DNA of 64,000 nucleotides from IMG/VR virus record IMGVR_UViG_2756170199_000003, positions 64,001 through 128,000 of that record; one strand, given 5' to 3'. The number at the start of each line of letters is the position of its first letter. The stretch's first letter is position 1. A model generated the notes under the pieces. That model searched no databases, had not been told where the DNA came from, and worked only from the letters and a program-made list of their open reading frames with translations. The translations under genes were made by a program, and so were the position numbers. Positions 40,556 to 64,000 of the stretch are shown one piece after another. Source of the DNA: a virus (lineage: Duplodnaviria > Caudoviricetes).

Positions 40556-42565
40556 ATGGCAGTGAAACTCCCTTCAAACCACGCCGGTGACGAGCCGGGT
40601 GCAGACTCGAGCATGGCCCAGGCGTTCAGCCAGGCCCAGCAGACGGAGAGCGAGCGGTTCTCGTCGCAATCCGGAGCCGCAGAGGCACGCGAACGTCCAG
40701 CAGGCACGGGTGGCCACTTTGCATTTTCGAGTTCGACCCATTTCCTCGAGACCGTGCTCCCGGCCAATTCGGAGAGCGAGGTTCTCACGAAGATCCACGA
40801 CATGCTCAAGGCGCGGTTCGTATCCTCAAGCCCCGAGCACGAACTCACACTCGTGCCGGTCAATCGCGATGACACCACGCAGCTCGAATTTTCGGTCATG
40901 GTGATCGCGTTGCGCCACAAGTCATGGCCCGAACTTGGTGTCGCCTACTACACCATGATCCTCGAGGGTTCGGCACCTGAACTCCCGCCGATCCTGCGCT
41001 CCGAAGGCGGCGAAACATTCGATGATCCGCGCTTTCCCAGCGACATGAACACGGCGGCGCTTGACGCCGAGGTCCGCGAGCGGCTGATGCGCGTCTTTCC
41101 GCAGCATCCGCTGTGGAGCGCTGGCGTGGGTGTAGTGCGGCGCGACTTCAACCCGGAAAACAGGGAGCTGGCCCACAGGCTGGCCAAGCGCGTGAGCGAC
41201 GCGTGTGTGCTGGAGCTCAAGCGACACCAACCAGGCGGATTCCACGATCTGAACCTGGTCGAAGCCGTCGGCAGCGATACGCTGGTCATCCGTCCGACCT
41301 TCGGCAACGGGCAGATTTACGACGTCATGGGTCATCCGGTCCGCGGTGATATCGAGATCCTCAGTACGATTCCGGGCAAACAGGTTCCTGGTCAGCCGGA
41401 GCTGACGATGCGCGACACGGTCGTGTCGGTGGTCCACGGTTTCGTGGATCTCGTCTGGTCGCCTGAAGAACCGCAGATCCTGCCGTACATGCAAACGCCC
41501 GCGGCCGCCGGCGTCAACTCCGCGCTTCGCCGGAAGTACTACCCGCGCTTTGTGATCACAAACTGCGGCGCCGCCCAGGTGCCGACGCTGGGCGGCCAGT
41601 TGCTCTCGATCATGATAGCGACCGCGTGTCTGTCCCCGGGTCTGTGGGTGGAAGCTTTCCGTCCCCCACAAGGTCATGCGAGCGGCAATGAGGTCAACTG
41701 GAGAAATATCGGCGCCCTGAACATCGAGGCGAACCTCGAGAACGACCCGAGCGGCTACGGCACACCGCTGAACAGCATGCTCGACTCGTTCATCCGCGAG
41801 ACGGGCCCGAACGGCAGCCCGTTCCGCACGCTCATCGCCAACACCATCCGTGAAAAGCTGGTGGTCTCGATGGACATTGTCGAATGCGGTATCGAGTCGT
41901 ATCTGAGCGAAGTGCTCTATCTCGCCGCCGAGGGCAATTCAAGCAACAGCCGGCCGGCCAACATGCAGATCATCCAGTCGATGGAAGATCTGACAGACGG
42001 CCACTTCCTGCCGATTTACAACCGCCTCTGGCAGCAGGCCAACCCTAAGCTCAGCCTGCGGCCCGAGGACCGGCGTCTGGTCACCGACGAGTGCAACCGG
42101 ATTCTCAAGGGAACCCTCGTCTACGGTGGCGAACTGATGTCGACGGACTATGTGGACTACCTCGCGAACCTGAACGTCGCGGGTCCGAACAATCACGAGG
42201 ATGTCCTCACATGGTCCGATACCTTCTCGAACGTCGGCATCAAGCTCAACCAGCGCGTGGCCAAGCGCTCGAAGATCACCAAGGCGATCGCTGGCCCGGC
42301 GACCAAGTTCACCGCGGCAGCCCGCCGCGTCACACTTGCGAGCGACGTACTCGCCGCAGGGTTGATGGCGCTCGGCGAGCTCAAGCTGAACATGGTGTTT
42401 CAGTCAGCGGGGCTCGGACGGCCGCAGTACCAGCGTGCGGTCAATCCGTTCCTCGACGCCGCTGCGCTCGATCCGAATGTCAACGCCGGCTTCTTCGGCA
42501 GCGGCTTCGGGACTCCGTCGGCGCAATACGGCAACCGTGCGGGCTTTAACCGCTTCATGTCCTGA
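40556..42565 (+). CDS. chmA: Chimallin, phage nuclear shell protein (phiKZ gp54-like)
   Basis: 669 aa directly upstream of the nvRNAP beta' gene; recalled motifs GFVDLVW, YYPRFVIT, QLLS, NIGALNIEAN, DYLA, ARRVT; flexible N-terminus and aromatic/Gly-rich C-terminal tail. Confidence 0.85.
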   Translation: MAVKLPSNHAGDEPGADSSMAQAFSQAQQTESERFSSQSGAAEARERPAGTGGHFAFSSSTHFLETVLPANSESEVLTKIHDMLKARFVSSSPEHELTLVPVNRDDTTQLEFSVMVIALRHKSWPELGVAYYTMILEGSAPELPPILRSEGGETFDDPRFPSDMNTAALDAEVRERLMRVFPQHPLWSAGVGVVRRDFNPENRELAHRLAKRVSDACVLELKRHQPGGFHDLNLVEAVGSDTLVIRPTFGNGQIYDVMGHPVRGDIEILSTIPGKQVPGQPELTMRDTVVSVVHGFVDLVWSPEEPQILPYMQTPAAAGVNSALRRKYYPRFVITNCGAAQVPTLGGQLLSIMIATACLSPGLWVEAFRPPQGHASGNEVNWRNIGALNIEANLENDPSGYGTPLNSMLDSFIRETGPNGSPFRTLIANTIREKLVVSMDIVECGIESYLSEVLYLAAEGNSSNSRPANMQIIQSMEDLTDGHFLPIYNRLWQQANPKLSLRPEDRRLVTDECNRILKGTLVYGGELMSTDYVDYLANLNVAGPNNHEDVLTWSDTFSNVGIKLNQRVAKRSKITKAIAGPATKFTAAARRVTLASDVLAAGLMALGELKLNMVFQSAGLGRPQYQRAVNPFLDAAALDPNVNAGFFGSGFGTPSAQYGNRAGFNRFMS

Positions 42566-42577
42566 TGTTCTTCAGGC

Positions 42578-42611
42578 CCGGCAGGGGAAGTTTCCCTGCC
42601 GGCTTTTTTTT
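42578..42611 (+). terminator. Intrinsic terminator after chmA
   Basis: CCGGCAGGG/CCCTGCCGG stem followed by T8. Confidence 0.85.
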
Positions 42612-42717
42612 CCGCGCAGGTATTTGAGCCTGTACGGCCTGTGCATAGGTTTTTATTGAACCGGGTAATCCAGTGCAGGTACCCCCTTCATGCGCACCAC
42701 CCGCACGGAGAAAGAAA

Positions 42718-44223
42718 ATGGGAATCAGCCTTCGCCCGATCGACCACGACCAGGTCTTCCATTACCGCACGTCCCGGGAACCCATCATCGTCAACGATCT
42801 TCCCGACACCACAACCGAAGAAAAGAAATATGTCGATAACCTCATCTTCACGCGCTACGATCTCATCCACTCCGACCTGCTGTCGAACATCCCCTCGTGT
42901 GCCTGCGGCAATACGCTCGGGGTAGACAAGCTCGGCAACGGTCACGACATTCGCGCGGTCGTCTGCCCGGACTGCCACACCGAAGTCACCGCGCCGTATC
43001 AGGGCGATCTCGAACCGCTCATCTGGATGCGCGCGCCCAAAGGTGTGAAGGCGCTCATCAAGCCGCGCATGCTGACGATGCTCAGCGAGCATTTCCAGAA
43101 AAACAGCTTCGACGTGATCCGCTGGATCTGCGATCGGACGTACAAGGCGCCCGTAAAGGAGCCGCCGGTCATGGAGGCGGTCCGCGCCTCAGGCCTGCCC
43201 CGCGGTTACAACCATTTCGTCGAGAACTTCGACGCCATCATGGCGTTCCTGTTCAACCTGAAGCTCTATCCAAAGAAGGAACTTGCGCCGCTCAGGGAAT
43301 TCATCACGCGGTACCGAAACGTCATCTTCTCCCAGTATCTGCCGCTACCGAACCGGTCGCTGCTGGTGCTTGAGGAAACGAACCACGCGGCTTACACCGA
43401 TTGCACCGCGCCGATTGCAATCGACGCGATCCGCATGATGGTCGGGATCGATTCGCCGGCGGCGGTGTATTCCGACATCGTGCGTGAAAACCGCACGATC
43501 CGCATGCTCTTCCAGACGGCCGGCTATTACGACATCACATTGCGGGAGTTTCTCGCGTCCAAGTCGGGCGTGTTCCGCAAGAACGTGTTCGGCACGCGCT
43601 GCCACTTCGCTTTCCGTGCGGTCATCAGTTCGAACACAGGCCCTCACGACTACTCCGAGGTGCATATTCCGTGGAGTGTCGGGGTCGTGGTGTTCGAGTT
43701 GCATCTGAAGAACTTCCTGATGCGCGAAGGCATGACGCCGTGGGAAGCGGAAACGTACCTGAACGCACACGTCAACCAGTACAGCGAGAAGCTCGATGCG
43801 TATTTCAAACGCCTGATCGAAGAGTCGCCCTGGCCTGGGATACCGGTGACCGTGCAGCGAAATCCGAGCCTGCATCGTGCCAGTATCCAGCTGCTGTTCA
43901 TCACGCGCGTCACCCGCGACGTCGCGCAGCCGACAGTCGTATTCAGCATTCTCGACGTCACCGGGCCCAACGCGGACTACGACGGCGACATGATGAATCT
44001 CGTGCTCCCCATCGATCACGTCCTAACCCGCGAGCTTTATCCCCTCATGCCGCACCAGAGCGCATTCAGCATGAACGAGCCGCGTGCACTTTCGAAGAAT
44101 CTCTCGATGCCAAAGACCGTCGTGCTGACGATCAGCAACTGGATGCACTGGCCAGAGTCGGAGCTGGACGCACCCGACCCCGCAGTATTGCAACGCATGG
44201 CGCTCATCCCCGAGGCGGCATGA
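42718..44223 (+). CDS. Non-virion RNA polymerase beta' N-terminal subunit (phiKZ gp55-like)
   Basis: Zn finger CACG...CPDC; KSGVFRKNVFGTR, RAVI, QRNPSL, catalytic NADYDGD. Confidence 0.92.
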   Translation: MGISLRPIDHDQVFHYRTSREPIIVNDLPDTTTEEKKYVDNLIFTRYDLIHSDLLSNIPSCACGNTLGVDKLGNGHDIRAVVCPDCHTEVTAPYQGDLEPLIWMRAPKGVKALIKPRMLTMLSEHFQKNSFDVIRWICDRTYKAPVKEPPVMEAVRASGLPRGYNHFVENFDAIMAFLFNLKLYPKKELAPLREFITRYRNVIFSQYLPLPNRSLLVLEETNHAAYTDCTAPIAIDAIRMMVGIDSPAAVYSDIVRENRTIRMLFQTAGYYDITLREFLASKSGVFRKNVFGTRCHFAFRAVISSNTGPHDYSEVHIPWSVGVVVFELHLKNFLMREGMTPWEAETYLNAHVNQYSEKLDAYFKRLIEESPWPGIPVTVQRNPSLHRASIQLLFITRVTRDVAQPTVVFSILDVTGPNADYDGDMMNLVLPIDHVLTRELYPLMPHQSAFSMNEPRALSKNLSMPKTVVLTISNWMHWPESELDAPDPAVLQRMALIPEAA

Positions 44224-56022: not shown

Positions 56023-58323
56023 ATGAACGATCTGAGTGAATCACATGCGATATCGGCAGCAGCAGATTTTGCGACCGGCGTATTGCGTGAAGAACCCAAC
56101 GAGCTCCACATGGAGCTGCTCAACATCCTGAGTCTGAATCCCTGGGACGGTAACGACAGTGCCGTGCGAAAGCAGATGTTTGCTTCTCACCTCGGCCAGA
56201 TGCTGACTTTCAAAGGTGCGACGGAGCGGTACTGCCAGACCGGCGCCGAACGCGAATTCGCGAAATACACGTTCTCAACGCGAGTTCCGGTTGACTGCCA
56301 GGTGATCCGGATCATCGATCGTTACCGGGTGACGCCCGGCGAAGATAGCGTGATCCGCAGTCGCCAGGACAATCCTCACACGCTGATCATCTACGAGGAC
56401 GTCAACACCAGTGAGATCGGCTGCATCAACATCCAGACCCATACCTCGTATCACAGTCACTTTGGATTCCGCAACGCAATCCGGCCCGTGCTCTCACATA
56501 TCCGGCCGGGCGACTATCTGGCAGCGGGCACGATCCTGACCGACTCGCCTTCGGTCACGGAAACCGGAGGATATAAATACGGGCGCGAATGCAATGTAGC
56601 GTTCATGACGATGCCACCGACGTCAGAGGACGGGCATCTGATCTGCTCGGATGTACTCAAAGAATTCACGTTCAACAGGTTCGAAAGTCGCGTAGTGGAA
56701 TTCGGCCACCGATATTTCCCGCTCAATACTTACGGCGATATCACCTGCTTCCAGGGCTTCCCCAACATCGGTGATTTCGTACGGCCCGACGGCCTGCTTA
56801 TGGCCTTGCGCTCTTACGACCGCGATCCGCAGAGCTACGATCGCGAGCTCGCCATCGTTGAACAGGGCGTTCATGACCTGATGGAGGTCGACCATGTCTT
56901 CGACCGGCTGATCTATGCGGGCGCGGGTGGCGGACGGGTCATCGACATCCGGGTGCATCACGACCGCCAGGCGAGTGTGTTCCCGACGCCTCGGGGCATG
57001 GAGCAGCAGGCGTCGCGCTATGACGACGCGCTTCACGAGTTCTACAGCGATATCGTCGGGGAATATAAACGCCTCGAGCGTGAGCGAGGCGCGGAATATC
57101 TGCGACTGACACCCGAGTTTCGCCGGCTGGTGCGCGAGGCGCTCGACGCCACGATGCAACCGAAAGAGCGCGTCTTCAAGCTCTATCGTAATGCGCCGAT
57201 TGACGACTGGCGAATCGAGTTCGTAATCGAGTACGAGGTCACGCCCACCATCGGATTCAAGATCACCGACACACATGGCGGCAAGGGCGTGATCTGCAAG
57301 ATCGCCCCTCCCGAAGCGATGCCCGTGGACCAGGACGGCAATCGCGCAGACATCGTGTTCGCACCGAATTCGATCGTCTCACGCGAGAATCCTGGCCGCG
57401 CCTACGAGCTCTTCATCAATGCGTATTCACGCGACGTCGTGAAGCAGATCTGCCAGTGGTTCGGACTGGAACCTCGCGAGCGGAACCCACTGCCCAGAAT
57501 CCGCGAGATCGAATCGACGAATCCCGCCCTCTTCCAGCAGGCACTGGACCATCTCGTCGGCTACTACGCCATCGTGGTACCGAACATGGCGAAATGGTTC
57601 GCACCCGATCCAACCCTTGCGGCCGACAAGCGGTACACGAGACCGATGGCCGAACATCTGGCCAGCATCATCGCGGCCGGCATGCTCACGCTGCATTACC
57701 CGCCCGATAATCCGCGACCAGCCGCAGACATCGTGAGACTTCTGCGGAAGAACTATCACTCGACCTATGGACCTGTCAGCTACATCGGGCACAACGGCGA
57801 GCGACGGGTAACGAAGGCGCCGGTGCGCATTGGAAGCATGAACATCATCCTGCTTGAGAAGACTGCGGACGACTGGACAGCCGTCTCCTCCGGCAAGACA
57901 CAACATTTCGGAGTCCTGTCACCGGTTACCAACGTCGACAAATACGCCCTGCCGTGGCGACCCCAATCGATCCGTGCGTTTGGCGAGGCGGAGATGCGAC
58001 TCGTCGCGGCGTATTGCGGTCAGCGAGCGGTCGCCGAGATAGTCGATCGCAACAACAGCCGCGAGACGCACCGGGAAATTCTCGATGCGATCCTGCGTGC
58101 GGAGAAGCCTTCCGATATCGAGTGCGCGGTTGACCGCTCGCGCGTGCCCTACGGCAACAACCGGCCGTTACAGCTGGTGAAGCATCTGCTTGCATGCATG
58201 GGCATGGAGTTCGAGTACACGCCCTACGAGCCCGACTGGTCGAGCCCCGGATCGCAGCAACCCGATCCCGGCGGGCAGAAAGTCGGCCCTCCCCCAACTG
58301 CCGAACTGGAGGTTGCACCATGA
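56023..58323 (+). CDS. Non-virion RNA polymerase beta C-terminal subunit (phiKZ gp71/73-like, uninterrupted)
   Basis: RKQMFASH..Q, SEDG, GFKITDTHGGKGVI, ADIV..PNS..SRENPG, RAFGEAEMR. Confidence 0.92.
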   Translation: MNDLSESHAISAAADFATGVLREEPNELHMELLNILSLNPWDGNDSAVRKQMFASHLGQMLTFKGATERYCQTGAEREFAKYTFSTRVPVDCQVIRIIDRYRVTPGEDSVIRSRQDNPHTLIIYEDVNTSEIGCINIQTHTSYHSHFGFRNAIRPVLSHIRPGDYLAAGTILTDSPSVTETGGYKYGRECNVAFMTMPPTSEDGHLICSDVLKEFTFNRFESRVVEFGHRYFPLNTYGDITCFQGFPNIGDFVRPDGLLMALRSYDRDPQSYDRELAIVEQGVHDLMEVDHVFDRLIYAGAGGGRVIDIRVHHDRQASVFPTPRGMEQQASRYDDALHEFYSDIVGEYKRLERERGAEYLRLTPEFRRLVREALDATMQPKERVFKLYRNAPIDDWRIEFVIEYEVTPTIGFKITDTHGGKGVICKIAPPEAMPVDQDGNRADIVFAPNSIVSRENPGRAYELFINAYSRDVVKQICQWFGLEPRERNPLPRIREIESTNPALFQQALDHLVGYYAIVVPNMAKWFAPDPTLAADKRYTRPMAEHLASIIAAGMLTLHYPPDNPRPAADIVRLLRKNYHSTYGPVSYIGHNGERRVTKAPVRIGSMNIILLEKTADDWTAVSSGKTQHFGVLSPVTNVDKYALPWRPQSIRAFGEAEMRLVAAYCGQRAVAEIVDRNNSRETHREILDAILRAEKPSDIECAVDRSRVPYGNNRPLQLVKHLLACMGMEFEYTPYEPDWSSPGSQQPDPGGQKVGPPPTAELEVAP

Positions 58324-60317: not shown

Positions 60318-60410
60318 GCGCCAGTGGCAAGGAGCGGCAACCAGAAAATACCTCCCCAGGGCATCTGTTGGCAGACAGATGCCCTCCTTTTCTTCATCGA
60401 GATTTTTGTC

Positions 60411-61958
60411 ATGGCGGAGTTACGCATATCGACACGATCGCATCATTTCGTGGTCGACCAGATGTCGCCCCAGGGCAGGCAGGCCACGGAGAGATTCGCA
60501 AGGCAGTTCATCCACTATGGTCGCCGGCAACGCGCCCAACGCTATAACAGGTACAGCGCCCGCAACGCCCGCTCCGTCAGCGAGTACTCTGCGTGGCGCG
60601 AGGACCGCCGCGAGTGTCGCTTCCATATCAACGTGCTCGAGCGCTTCGAGCAACACCTCAAGGACTACGGACTCGATCATGAATCTCTGGTGGAGCGGGT
60701 CGCAGAAGTTCCACCTCCTGCATGCAGGATCGCGCTCCTGATTCGCGAAGGCTGGTCGCTGCGTGACTACCAGGAGCCGGCTGTCAATTACGTCACTGCG
60801 GATGCGGGCTCACGATCACGGTTTCTGGGTCTGCAGACTGGCAAGGGCAAGGGGATCACTGCGCTTTTCGCAATCAGGGATCTCGCAGTGAGGACGCTCG
60901 CCTTCCTGCAACCGAAGTACATCGAAAAATGGGTGATGGACATCCGCGAGATCTGTCAGGTCGAACTCGAAGACGTGATGGTCGTGCGCGGCGTTCAGCA
61001 TCTCAAGGCACTCCTCACGATGGCCGGTTCTGGCAGTCTGCACAGCCCGATCGTGATCATCAGCAGCAAGACCATGCAGCGCTGGATCAACGTCTACGAG
61101 CAATATGGCGAGGAGACGCTCAAGATGGGCTACGCCTGCCTGCCTGATCAACTGATGGGTTGGCTTGGGGTGGGCTTGCGGCTGATCGATGAAGTGCACC
61201 AGCATTTTGCGATGCAGTTCCGTCTGGATCTCTATACGCACTGCGAACGTTCGTTGTCGCTTTCTGCAACGCTGCTGCACACCGACGGCTTCCTGAACCG
61301 CATGTACGAAGTCGCGTATCCGGACGCGACGCGTTACAACGGGCCGGCCTATGACCGGTATGTTCGCGCCACTGCCCTCTTCTACCGGTTCAGGCACCCA
61401 CGACATATCCGCTTTCTCGATCCCCTGAGCCACAGCTATTCGCATTATCGCTTCGAAATGAGCGTAATGAAGGATCCGGCCGTGCTGGACAGCTATCTGG
61501 ATCTGATCGACAGCATTGTGAAGTCGAAGTATGAGCTCACTTATCGGCCCGGAGAAAAGCTCGTGATCTTCTTCGGCTCTGTAGCGATGTGTACGCGCGC
61601 GACAGCGTTCTTTCGCGCGCGCTATCCGGGCCGGGATGTACGGCGTTATGTTGAGGAGGATCCGTTCGCGAATGCGATGGAGCCCGACATGGTCATTACG
61701 ACCTTACAGTCGTACGGCGCCGCATTTCATCCGAAGGAGCTATCCACCGTCATTCTGACGGTCGCTGTGAACAGCCTCCAGGCCAATCTGCAGGTCCTCG
61801 GACGGCTGCTTCCACTTTCGGCTGGGAAGACTCCGGAATTCATCTATCTGGTCTGCATGGATATCGCACAGCACCGGATCTATCACGAGAGCAAGGTCGA
61901 GCTCTTCCGGCAGCGCGCATTGCACTGCGAAACGCAGTACGTGCATGCGCCGATATGA
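60411..61958 (+). CDS. SF2 DExH helicase (phiKZ gp75-like)
   Basis: LRDYQ, LQTGKGKG, IDEVH, LSATL, QVLGRL. Confidence 0.9.
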   Translation: MAELRISTRSHHFVVDQMSPQGRQATERFARQFIHYGRRQRAQRYNRYSARNARSVSEYSAWREDRRECRFHINVLERFEQHLKDYGLDHESLVERVAEVPPPACRIALLIREGWSLRDYQEPAVNYVTADAGSRSRFLGLQTGKGKGITALFAIRDLAVRTLAFLQPKYIEKWVMDIREICQVELEDVMVVRGVQHLKALLTMAGSGSLHSPIVIISSKTMQRWINVYEQYGEETLKMGYACLPDQLMGWLGVGLRLIDEVHQHFAMQFRLDLYTHCERSLSLSATLLHTDGFLNRMYEVAYPDATRYNGPAYDRYVRATALFYRFRHPRHIRFLDPLSHSYSHYRFEMSVMKDPAVLDSYLDLIDSIVKSKYELTYRPGEKLVIFFGSVAMCTRATAFFRARYPGRDVRRYVEEDPFANAMEPDMVITTLQSYGAAFHPKELSTVILTVAVNSLQANLQVLGRLLPLSAGKTPEFIYLVCMDIAQHRIYHESKVELFRQRALHCETQYVHAPI

Positions 61959-62100
61959 ACGGCATGCCCCCGTATGTGTGAAGGCATCCGTTTTAATTAG
62001 TAATCCGAACTTAATTGAAACTGGATGTGAACACATATCACGACACCGGAGCACGCCGTGGGGCCGTGCCTTCACTTATTTACCCAGGAGGGAGATGATC

Positions 62101-62661
62101 ATGCTTACGCTCGTACGCGATGCTGTGCTGGAGCGTCCGGCTGAAAAGCCGGAGTTCGGCAAAAGTGTAGCCGTGCTGGAGCAGTTTGGCTTTTACGACT
62201 ACGCAACGATCGGGGTAGCAGACGCCCGTCTGCACTTCACCGTCGGAATGACCGAGGTGAACCTGCCGGAATTTTTCGTAACCGGGAACGTGTCAGATGG
62301 ATATGCCGGGGATCTGTTTGCGGCCGTCAGCAAGGAATTCCTGACGACGAAGGGACGTACCGCGCTTGGGATCCGCGGTGACCTGATGCCCTTCCCTGTC
62401 GAGTTGCGCCTGATTGCAACGCCTCTGGAGCGGCGGCTGCCGGCCGAAGGGGGCAGCTATGCGGATATGATGAGGTGGCTCGATTGGCACTGGCCAGGGC
62501 GGGTCTGCATGGTGCAGATCATCTGGCCCGACGACAGCGGCCGGTTGCCAGACGAAACAGGGTTTGATGCCACCTGCTGTCGCCAGACCGTTCATCCACG
62601 ACTGCCGTTTATCGGTGGCACGGTCTCCGATGCGTGCGCACTCCAGGGAGGCAATGCATGA
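62101..62661 (+). CDS. DUF4262-like protein
   Basis: HFTVGMTEVNLPEFFVTG and VQIIWPDDSGRLP motifs. Confidence 0.7.
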   Translation: MLTLVRDAVLERPAEKPEFGKSVAVLEQFGFYDYATIGVADARLHFTVGMTEVNLPEFFVTGNVSDGYAGDLFAAVSKEFLTTKGRTALGIRGDLMPFPVELRLIATPLERRLPAEGGSYADMMRWLDWHWPGRVCMVQIIWPDDSGRLPDETGFDATCCRQTVHPRLPFIGGTVSDACALQGGNA

Positions 62662-63260
62662 GTGCACTCGATACGCTGTACCGCAATCGCGACCGGAATC
62701 AGGTGGAGTTTGACCGCTTCGAAGGCCAACTGTTGGAGCTTATCAGGAGGTCCCGTGAGAGCGGCCCATTGCCCGCGGCCATTCGTGAGTTGCGCGATGT
62801 TGCCTCATTGAAAGCTGGCGATGACGAGGCCCGTTGCGTCGCGGTACATCAATGCCAGAGGCTGCTGTGGTGGCTTGCCAAACCAGCCTGGCAAGTCGAC
62901 GAGGCGTGTGGACTGGTCTACGGGGTCGATCCCGCTGCGGAGAGAGATGGTGCCGCACAGGCTGGCTGTTATGCACTTGACGGACGGCTGCTGACCGCCG
63001 ATTCGTCAGAGGCGTATCACGCGTGGCTTCTGCTCGAGTCGCTCTATCTCCACATGGAAAACCGGATCGAGCAAGCCATCACCGTTTCCGATCTTTCCTG
63101 CGAAATCAGTCCGGCTGATTTCATCAACTGGTGCCACGATGAGGGCGTCGACACAAGCTACCTCCGGTTGATCCGCACACTTGTTGGTCTTGGCGAAAAC
63201 CGGCTTGTGGGACGGCTACCACTTGCTGACGTGCAGATCTTCGTCTCAGGCAGGCAATGA
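62658..63260 (+). CDS. Hypothetical protein
   Basis: GGAGG RBS and ATGA overlap; W..KPAW...EACGL..GVDP and PADFINWC motifs typical of mobile-element proteins. Confidence 0.6.
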   Translation: MSALDTLYRNRDRNQVEFDRFEGQLLELIRRSRESGPLPAAIRELRDVASLKAGDDEARCVAVHQCQRLLWWLAKPAWQVDEACGLVYGVDPAAERDGAAQAGCYALDGRLLTADSSEAYHAWLLLESLYLHMENRIEQAITVSDLSCEISPADFINWCHDEGVDTSYLRLIRTLVGLGENRLVGRLPLADVQIFVSGRQ

Positions 63261-64000
63261 CGAAGCCTGCCGCAGGGTCGGCCCTTGCACGCGATGGGAC
63301 TGGGGCACTCCCGGTCCCATCTCTTCCTTCTCATTTTTTTTGTCTTTCCGGCCAGGCTTGACCAGATCCAGGATCCCCTCGACGTAGGCACGGGTAGTCG
63401 CCGTCACGGGCCTTTTGGCTTCGGTTTTCGTGATCGGGGCGACCGAAGCCGCGGGCGTAACTTCACGCAGGCGGCCAGAGGCCAGCGCTGCGGCAAACCC
63501 CACCTGCCAGTTCGGCACCTGACGCGCAACTGCTTCCTCGGCGTTGTAGACGGACAGGCATTCGCCCGACGTATCCACGGTGTGAGTATTCCCGTCCGTA
63601 TCCTCGAACGATTTCCCGGCGTTCTGCCTTGCGATAGCGCGTGCCTGTACGACGCGTTGCTTGCGTGCCTGGTCTTCGGCGCGAGTTTCGTTGCGCTGGC
63701 GCAGCTGATGCGAGAAATCGACCGGGTTGTTCAGCAGGGAGCCGAGATAGCAGATCGGACGCTTGGCGAGCTTCAGGTGTTGCCACGTGACTTCGACGAC
63801 ATCGGAGAGACGCTTACCGGCCTCACGTGCCTGACGCATGAGTTTAAAGATCAGGAAATCAGAAAAACCCAGGGTGCGAAGGCGCTGAAGATCCGACGGC
63901 ACCTCGCCCGGTTGTCTCTTTTGAAAAGAAGCAGGGGAAAGATCCTTATATATACCACCGTGTGCCACCGTGGCAGACGGTGTATTTGCTTCTTCTGGGG
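63246..64000 (-). CDS. Plasmid replication protein ('replication protein O'-like of Burkholderiales plasmids), 5' part outside window
   Basis: Frame open to the window edge; SATVAHGGIYKDL.PASFQKRQPG..P.DLQRL..LGF..FLIFKLMR.AR..GKRLSDVVE...P..YL..LL..PVDF is recognised from memory as this family. Confidence 0.65.
   Translation of the reverse strand, partial: PEEANTPSATVAHGGIYKDLSPASFQKRQPGEVPSDLQRLRTLGFSDFLIFKLMRQAREAGKRLSDVVEVTWQHLKLAKRPICYLGSLLNNPVDFSHQLRQRNETRAEDQARKQRVVQARAIARQNAGKSFEDTDGNTHTVDTSGECLSVYNAEEAVARQVPNWQVGFAAALASGRLREVTPAASVAPITKTEAKRPVTATTRAYVEGILDLVKPGRKDKKNEKEEMGPGVPQSHRVQGPTLRQASSLPA
63293..63342 (+). terminator. Intrinsic terminator (+ strand)
   Basis: GATGGGAC...GTCCCATC stem followed by a pyrimidine/T tract. 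Confidence 0.55.

Follow-up and report, generated by a model that had tools for sequence, protein, structure and literature searches.

What is a gene of plasmid replication doing beside the core genes of a jumbo phage that builds a nucleus? The question is raised by a stretch of 64,000 bases, hereafter the window, which comprises bases 64001–128000 of a 138,880-base IMG/VR record (IMGVR_UViG_2756170199_000003; G000) with Paraburkholderia as host, and at whose far end a minus-strand open reading frame (ORF), called rep below, runs towards the phage genes. The answer regarded here as likely is a plasmid-prophage chimallivirus of about 280 kb, living in Paraburkholderia, with a maintenance cassette built into its genome. 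An earlier note on this DNA had proposed a phage-plasmid from the window, and this proposal is supported by the presence of a full phage gene set together with rep, parA, and parB on one molecule; carriage as a plasmid, like host-dependent replication, antisense RNA control, and the function of an origin, is what we infer from the layout and relationships set out below. Coordinates on the whole record are marked C1, and those marked L002 are tied to them by the correspondence of L002 1247 with C1 127,246.

Within the window, rep comprises 250 codons, with its stop at 63246 and its 5' end open at the window edge, and its 3' end overlaps by 15 bases the stop of the last phage-side ORF, with which it is convergent (Table 1). 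The earlier note had recognized this ORF as the C-terminal part of 'replication protein O' of plasmids, a recognition borne out by the complete gene of 415 codons, as tblastn with full-length Rep recovers 117 homologues on PLSDB plasmids with identities of 50–58% (up to 57.7%), 91 of them covering at least 80% of the query and many annotated 'Replication protein O'. The plasmids are from Burkholderia, Cupriavidus, Caballeronia, Paraburkholderia, Mycetohabitans, and Pandoraea, and all hosts other than that of one Comamonas record belong to the Burkholderiaceae. A large protein collection contains 485 homologues, the 120 listed having E values down to 1e-228 and identities of 52–85% over 83–100% of the query, with none matching this Rep sequence exactly, and the family is present in 34 of 213 Paraburkholderia species genomes. 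No Rep homologue is found in any of the 50,697 phage records searched. In the family alignment, two conserved domains (residues ~20–145 and 172–265) are joined by a variable linker and followed by a variable C-terminal part; the present Rep keeps all 80 family-invariant residues and has a lineage-specific 3' tail, which overlaps a putative phage-side terminator. Judged by sequence, the gene is a member of the Burkholderiaceae plasmid initiator family known as 'Replication protein O'. The role of initiator is suggested by gene context (in the complete circular plasmid p3 of Caballeronia grimmiae, NZ_CP084276.1, the homologue follows parA and parB in the same order), by plasmid records that begin at or near the first base of rep, and by the status of the homologue as one of four single-copy core genes of Mycetohabitans plasmids (PMC12696581).

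It should be noted that 'Replication protein O' is only a label, as the Phage_rep_O profile matches neither Rep (E ≤ 0.1) nor any of 41 family members (E ≤ 0.05). The profile search of Rep likewise gives no Rep_3 or TrfA match and only sub-threshold winged-helix hits (HTH_36, 0.016; phrog_270, 6e-4). Assignment to the RepC family (PF03428/PF11800) is rejected because PF03428 scores 12.4 bits here and at most 18.7 in relatives, below the cut-off of 24.4, and is non-specific, unrelated winged helices also scoring in 11 of 14 control genomes.

The jumbo-phage core named in the earlier note is equally plain in the window, where full-length matches to PHROGs include the tail sheath (3e-206), DNA polymerase (1e-230), the large terminase, and a virion structural protein, along with the nuclear shell protein chimallin (phrog_4795, 2e-49) and an RNA polymerase beta subunit (phrog_2987, 3e-137). 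Going by gene content, that is, the presence of chimallin and of split multisubunit RNA polymerase genes, the phage is phiKZ-like and nucleus-forming (Chimalliviridae-type). The gene for the beta-type subunit of the non-virion RNA polymerase (nvRNAP beta) served as the marker of the phage backbone; of the 306 phage records that it matches, Burkholderia phage FLC9 ranks first (50% over 93%), and identity to the Ralstonia phages RP12 and RP31 is 41%. Between the helicase gene that ends this core and rep lie 1,288 bases containing exactly two ORFs, in agreement with the two accessory genes and about 1.3 kb given before.

Beyond the window edge, rep does not stand alone. Upstream of it on the same strand are parB and then parA, giving the minus-strand order parA-parB-rep, so that the parAB genes that the earlier note had suggested looking for are found directly past the edge. 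The best phage matches of ParA are the classical phage-plasmids (P1, N15/PY54/phiKO2, and SSU5 groups), at about 30–35% identity. The same cassette recurs in relatives of the phage, of which three were compared: a second IMG/VR record (G001) and contigs of two Paraburkholderia genomes, G007:C5 (284,264 bases) and G186:C11 (286,074 bases). Their nvRNAP beta is 81% (G001), 79% (G007), and 63% (G186) identical to the present one. G001 is colinear with G000 from the first base to 1.3 kb past parA, and its Rep is a protein of Paraburkholderia sp. HC6.4b encoded on a 282,688-base contig. G007 and G186 are the only 2 of the 213 Paraburkholderia species genomes with nvRNAP beta, and both have a Rep homologue 5–6 kb from it in the same convergent arrangement. 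A fifth phage-linked Rep, 85% identical, is on a 275,198-base contig. The junction between phage core and cassette is thus syntenic in four independent assemblies whose backbones have diverged to 63–81% identity in nvRNAP beta. No further relatives were obtained with the helicase among viral contigs or with nvRNAP beta in 399 sampled Burkholderiaceae genomes (E ≤ 1e-40), and a search of sequencing runs listed no RNA run, its best DNA run being a soil metagenome with 0.44 of the words.

What lies on the far side of the cassette can be read in the complete relatives. In G007:C5, the cassette occupies 179.4–183.1 kb; one side is an arc homologous to G000 (49.7–179 kb), and the other holds arcs at 194.8–230.6 and 251–265.7 kb that are shared with G186 and contain jumbo-phage PHROG families (phrog_3248 at 1e-302, a DnaB-like helicase, a DNA polymerase, a polymerase, and internal head proteins), the remainder of the contig being variable cargo. 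The phiKZ-type genes therefore resume beyond the cassette in both G007 and G186, as the earlier note had anticipated for a phage-plasmid, and the sequence past rep is not that of an ordinary plasmid holding a captured phage fragment.

These comparisons make it highly improbable that the element is a chromosomally integrated prophage or that the junction is a chimera of phage and plasmid assemblies. Such a reading is favored by the IMG/VR class of both G000 and G001, which is 'provirus', and by two tyrosine recombinase genes 5.4 kb beyond parA in G000. However, the junction is colinear in four independent assemblies, no chromosomal flank is seen in the complete contigs, and G186:C11 bears an exact terminal overlap of 125 bases, the signature of a circular assembly, with no Phage_integrase match at E ≤ 1e-6 in its 286 kb. 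The recombinase pair lies in an insertion absent from G007, whereas the recombinase trio of G007 is inserted elsewhere. The earlier statement that no integrase marks the junction consequently holds for the junction itself but has to be qualified for its surroundings, where the pair past parA represents a strain-specific insertion. As for the records, G000 and G001 begin at the same homologous base, cover about half of the ~280-kb contigs, and receive CheckV completeness values of 52–53% (52% for G000). The limits of both records fall at islands of variable cargo. Their assignment to 'provirus' and their low completeness are therefore artefacts of record delimitation, the record having been cut at these islands, and do not reflect integration.

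The insertion in G000 spans 4.5 kb relative to G007 (L002 7171–11661; C1 133,170–137,660) and encodes tyrosine recombinases of 743 and 459 aa and a 168-aa ORF; by its gene content, it looks like a recombinase-only mobile element rather than a phage integrase locus. Four DnaA-box-like octamers are found near its ends, three of them clustered in 60 bases at one end and the fourth near the other. An origin at the three octamers (C1 133,506–133,565) was considered and discarded, as they belong to the strain-specific insertion and are absent from G001, G007, and G186. The recombinase trio of G007 (G007:C5 56,828–60,539) is a second, independent element, a 3.7-kb insertion relative to G000 (C1 7,941–8,327).

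The ratios of nonsynonymous to synonymous substitution (dN/dS; Table 1) are low for rep, parA, and parB as for the neighboring phage genes, and the cassette is therefore maintained by selection in its phage context. At the same time, its history is not that of the backbone. Among G000, G001, and G007, ParA is 97–98% and ParB 91–93% identical, and synonymous divergence (dS) is 0.25–0.55 for parA and parB compared with 1.2–1.6 for the flanking phage genes and 0.9–1.4 for rep (G000 versus G001 and G007). By this measure, the partition genes and the leader of rep have been exchanged among the three elements more recently than their backbones split. The Rep of G000 is 75% identical to that of G001 and 51% to that of G007, while G186 has a different ParAB type (45–46% identical) and a Rep whose nearest relative is a Caballeronia Rep (76%). 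Monophyly of the five phage-linked Reps is rejected (delta lnL 164, p 9e-62) by an approximately unbiased (AU) test, in which Reps P0003, P0004, and P0078 were without context information. The mosaic identities, the ParAB type of G186, and the AU test thus indicate that, with its locus unchanged, the cassette has been replaced by, or recombined with, those of same-family plasmids.

Could these be virulent jumbo phages in a persistent or carrier state, with the cassette a recent passenger or an aid to the lytic cycle (in genome positioning or initiation)? The mosaic, plasmid-exchanged cassette, with its low dS in parAB and the rejected monophyly of Rep, would suit such a state, as would the DnaB-like helicase and DNA polymerases of the element itself, and among the virulent phage genomes in assemblies of Escherichia isolates, jumbo phages that encode chimallin are over-represented (bioRxiv 10.1101/2024.12.31.630880). 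However, those persistent Escherichia phages are reported to be without plasmid replication or ParA genes (bioRxiv 10.1101/2024.12.31.630880), and the cassette described here retains one locus across backbones diverged to 63% in nvRNAP beta, is under purifying selection, and keeps all cis elements of its family. Moreover, the lytic relatives FLC9, RP12, and RP31, together with all other phage records, have no Rep, which is therefore dispensable for lytic growth in this clade. A carrier state is for these reasons unlikely, and a plasmid prophage remains the preferred reading.

A different possibility is that the contigs are megaplasmids that captured a jumbo phage, now defective or domesticated, with the phage genes as cargo or remnants. 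Of each 284–286-kb contig, 40–50% is variable cargo not common to G007 and G186, IMG/VR and CheckV see only 52–53% of a phage, and a fragment of nvRNAP beta beside a homologous rep in a 406-kb Paraburkholderia contig indicates that decay to a plasmid does happen. In contrast, the hallmark phage genes here are full length, with profiles covered end to end; purifying selection acts on the phage genes (dN/dS ~0.1 for nvRNAP beta and the helicase), which are conserved in four diverged elements; the size matches that of free relatives (FLC9, 322 kb; RP12, 280 kb); and arcs of phage genes flank the cassette on both sides. We regard capture by a megaplasmid as quite improbable and the plasmid prophage, again, as the better account.

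The cassette also contains cis elements, one of which is inside rep itself. Across 28 non-redundant members of the family, synonymous-codon identity is 0.84–0.92 at codons 167–196 compared with 0.35–0.50 along most of the gene, and the AT fraction at these codons is 0.52–0.60 compared with 0.35–0.40 elsewhere in rep; the AT-richest 60 bases of the gene fall at the same place in nearly every family member. The constraint on silent sites at codons 167–196 therefore points to a function at the level of nucleic acid. The codons contain a palindrome with the consensus CCGTCTGCCA-N3-TGGCAGACGG, which is present in 32 of 32 rep genes, once per element, and in G001 the same change appears in both arms, so that the symmetry is kept. 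Given that oriV lies within repC in an analogous system, that an AT-rich core adjoins the palindrome, and that the palindrome stays constant across differing ParB types, the element is proposed as the origin and the palindrome as a putative binding site for Rep. Iterons, which the earlier note had suggested looking for beyond the window, did not appear: in this record and in three relatives, the sequence up to 600 bases from rep has no repeat family of more than two copies.

A second set of elements lies between parB and rep, in a spacer of 250 bases that is alignable in 31 of 32 family members, this record included. Three hairpins in the leader show compensatory changes, namely a long GC-rich one followed by a T-run, a short one with the same loop, and one abutting the start codon. 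A structure of five helices has 96.7% of its cells paired, compared with 20–48% when the partners are slid, and nine pairs are changed on both sides; none of 500 shuffles reaches the observed values. On the opposite strand, the two most invariant motifs of the leader are the promoter-like hexamers TTGACT and TACACT, with a 16-base spacer fixed in 26 of 26 aligned sequences, and a terminator-like site is found on the same strand. The predicted antisense transcript of about 120 nucleotides (nt) would include the short hairpin and terminate at the long one, which carries the U-tail. By analogy with countertranscript-type layouts, the replicon appears to be controlled by an antisense RNA, although Rfam yields no match across L002 1–8000 at E ≤ 1 and no countertranscribed RNA (ctRNA) family. 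Two long-range stems of the leader (GCTTG/CAAGC type) are not claimed, as they show almost no compensatory change and their 3' halves coincide with the antisense promoter hexamers.

Further sites accompany the partition genes. A perfect 15-base palindrome directly after the parB stop (L002 2704–2718; C1 128,703–128,717) is common to G000, G001, and G007, which share a ParB type, and other ParB types carry different palindromes at this place; the palindrome, which thus covaries with ParB, is a candidate centromere (parS). Every relative also has, ahead of parA, a -35/-10 pair resembling a promoter, together with two half-sites of the chromosomal parS type that are inverted relative to each other and separated by some 80 bases.

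The AlphaFold model of the whole Rep protein (predicted local distance difference test, pLDDT, 73.6) has an N-terminal winged helix, in keeping with the helix-turn-helix N-terminus that the earlier note had suggested looking for, and this part aligns best with MarR-type chains (Z 6.5, root-mean-square deviation 2.6, 75 residues aligned). Fold searches with the whole Rep return generic winged-helix matches only, and no RepE- or pi-type chain is listed. The C-terminal domain, folded alone (pLDDT 83.5), contains a small beta sheet along with five helices, four short and one long. A relationship to the DnaD domain was dropped, its Z of 4.6–4.7 being level with that of unrelated folds, and a family-profile sequence search of the PDB gave nothing meaningful.

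Taken in order, the minus-strand cassette would comprise the parA promoter with its inverted half-sites, parA, parB, the candidate centromere, a structured leader of ~190 nt, and rep. In the mechanism proposed, a Rep dimer would bind the palindrome in its own gene through the N-terminal winged helix, open the adjoining AT-rich core, and recruit the replisome. The antisense RNA of ~120 nt, starting at the conserved leader promoter and ending at the conserved hairpin with a U-tail, would pair with the rep leader and limit the synthesis of Rep, hence the copy number, while ParA and ParB would segregate the copies, such that the phage genome is inherited as a low-copy circular plasmid, that is, a plasmid prophage. 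The DNA polymerase, helicases, RNA polymerases, and nuclear shell of the phage would serve the lytic cycle, and exchange of the cassette with resident plasmids may alter incompatibility or partition specificity. The most far-reaching form of this proposal, in which a nucleus-forming jumbo lineage is truly temperate without integration, as a low-copy plasmid partitioned by ParAB, with an origin embedded in rep, antisense RNA control, and cassette swaps that escape incompatibility, is one to which we incline by a little.

Several observations weigh against a plasmid prophage. The literature search found no experimental demonstration of initiator function in this Rep family, Rep matches no curated Rep family, and no structure found by the fold searches resembles its C-terminal domain convincingly (best Z 5.4). 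For the two long-range leader stems, the antisense promoter, and not base pairing, may be what keeps the sequence invariant. In addition, G000 is only a 138,880-base piece labeled 'provirus' by IMG/VR, and jumbo chimallin phages occur in isolate assemblies as persistent infections, not plasmids (bioRxiv 10.1101/2024.12.31.630880); given this precedent, a separate contig is by itself weak evidence of a plasmid state.

The closest counterparts of the cassette are the rep plasmids of the Burkholderiaceae (p3 of C. grimmiae, those of Burkholderia sp. RPE67, and those of Mycetohabitans), which have the same gene order, a Rep 50–58% identical over ~90% with the two conserved domains, and the same leader hairpins, antisense promoter motifs, and intragenic palindrome with AT-rich element. 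These plasmids carry ordinary plasmid cargo, whereas here the cassette lies between two arcs of a phiKZ-like phage genome. A more distant parallel is offered by the repABC plasmids of Alphaproteobacteria, which consist of repA/parA, repB/parB, a ctRNA encoded between repB and repC, and repC with oriV inside it. The present cassette resembles them in the order of partition ATPase, ParB, and initiator, in a putative antisense-RNA gene in the gap between parB and rep, in an intragenic AT-rich origin candidate, and in a ParA whose best NCBIfam match is partition_RepA, but differs in the initiator, which there is RepC, and in its putative antisense RNA of ~120 nt with two hairpins.

Phage-plasmids are well known as a class. 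The P1, N15/PY54/phiKO2, and SSU5 groups also combine a phage genome with plasmid replication and a ParAB module, but they are temperate phages of 40–110 kb with known repressors, and none is a nucleus-forming jumbo phage or has this Rep. Closer in size is pBtic235 of Bacillus thuringiensis serovar israelensis, an inducible 235-kb circular jumbo phage-plasmid kept extrachromosomally at low copy, whose repA region is dispensable for lytic growth (PMC9700832). It too is a jumbo tailed phage with plasmid and phage modules, but its host is Gram-positive, its phage and replicon are unrelated, and chimallin and multisubunit RNA polymerases are not reported there. The closest backbones are those of Burkholderia phage FLC9 and the Ralstonia phages RP12, RP31, and FLC1-1B, all isolated as lytic, with genomes of 277–322 kb and nvRNAP beta identities of 40–41% apart from that of FLC9; they have no Rep homologue and are absent among the ParA matches listed. 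The persistent Escherichia jumbo phages are likewise chimallin genomes found as separate contigs of isolates (bioRxiv 10.1101/2024.12.31.630880), but they were screened and are without plasmid replication genes and ParA, whereas the present lineage has a complete cassette under selection.

Nucleus-forming jumbo phages are treated as obligately lytic. Lysogeny, temperate behavior, and plasmid carriage are not discussed in reviews of jumbo and nucleus-forming phages or in a survey of chimallin-encoding genomes, and the full-text literature search found no report of a plasmid-borne chimallivirus or other nucleus-forming jumbo phage, so that a plasmid-prophage form of a phiKZ-like phage would be new to the literature searched. 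If the reading is right, a chimallivirus genome would lie 'naked' and transcriptionally quiet in the cytoplasm for generations, the nucleus being built only on induction, and there would be a genetic handle on how such a genome is kept silent while unprotected by a shell. It would also provide a natural system for engineering nucleus-forming phages as replicons, and, since a temperate relative can move cargo between strains, it would have implications for using these phages in biocontrol of Burkholderia and Ralstonia. Irrespective of the phage, an architecture is described for a widespread, uncharacterized Burkholderiaceae replicon, with a leader of the antisense-RNA type and an intragenic origin candidate.

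Table 1. Features at the junction of phage core and cassette. Positions are those of the window unless marked C1 or L002.
Feature	Position	Strand	Basis or match	dN/dS
nvRNAP beta-type subunit	56023..58323	+	Pfam RNA_pol_Rpb2_6	0.10-0.15
Phage helicase, last conserved core gene before junction	60324..61958	+	phrog_16 DNA helicase 4e-28; weak ResIII	0.10-0.15
DUF4262 accessory gene	62098..62661	+	PF14081 E 1.2e-8; 39-45% identical in G001, G007	0.25-0.29
208-aa accessory gene, last phage-side gene	62634..63260	+	No Pfam/NCBIfam family; 56-57% identical in G001, G007	0.16
rep 3' part, codons 166-415 of 415	63246..64000	-	ORF; full gene C1 127,246-128,493 = L002 1247-2494	0.17 and 0.27 vs two closest elements
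Terminator-like hairpin, 13 pairs and T-rich tail	63293..63321 (L002 1294-1322)	+	Consensus scan; within rep 3' tail	
Palindrome and AT-rich cis element, candidate origin	63915..63980	-	Synonymous constraint, consensus of family	
Second small inverted repeat	63915-63929	-	Inside rep	
AT-rich core, 17 bases	63938-63954	-	Inside rep	
Palindrome, 10+10 bases, 3-base spacer	63958-63980	-	Inside rep	
parB	L002 2745-3764	Same as rep	ParB_N, HTH_ParB, phrog_4715 3e-16	0.09-0.12
parA	L002 3737-4978	Same as rep	AAA_31 2e-38, phrog_164 6e-56, TIGR03453 (partition_RepA, best NCBIfam) 2e-63	0.03-0.05

Among the genes of the junction, the helicase is 69–70% identical in G001 and G007, and the two accessory genes that follow it are the least conserved, at 39–57% compared with 69–81% for their neighbors, while still being under purifying selection (dN/dS 0.16–0.29). 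The hairpin in the 3' tail of rep is a putative terminator for the convergent phage transcripts.

Sequences resembling nvRNAP beta also turn up elsewhere. The otherwise ordinary 406-kb contig of Paraburkholderia sp. HD33-4 (G002:C4) contains the same parA-parB-rep cassette with rep at 41,823–42,998. Downstream of rep by 1 kb, and convergent with it as in the phage, is a 201-aa ORF in which a stretch of 90 residues (43,951–44,220) is 54% identical to residues 61–150 of nvRNAP beta, probably, from this resemblance, the relic of a decayed or recombined phage-plasmid. On the 545-kb plasmid of Cupriavidus sp. USMAA2-4 (NZ_CP017750.1), a 221-aa hypothetical protein (L082 7992–8657) is 44% identical to nvRNAP beta residues 326–488; its gene stands where an antitoxin gene would, immediately ahead of a RelE/ParE toxin gene and overlapping it. 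Finally, the 222,441-base 'plasmid' NZ_CP134650.1 of Enterobacter ludwigii in PLSDB encodes an nvRNAP-beta-like protein at 114,596–116,464 (21% over 78% of the query); this entry may in fact represent the genome of a jumbo phage.

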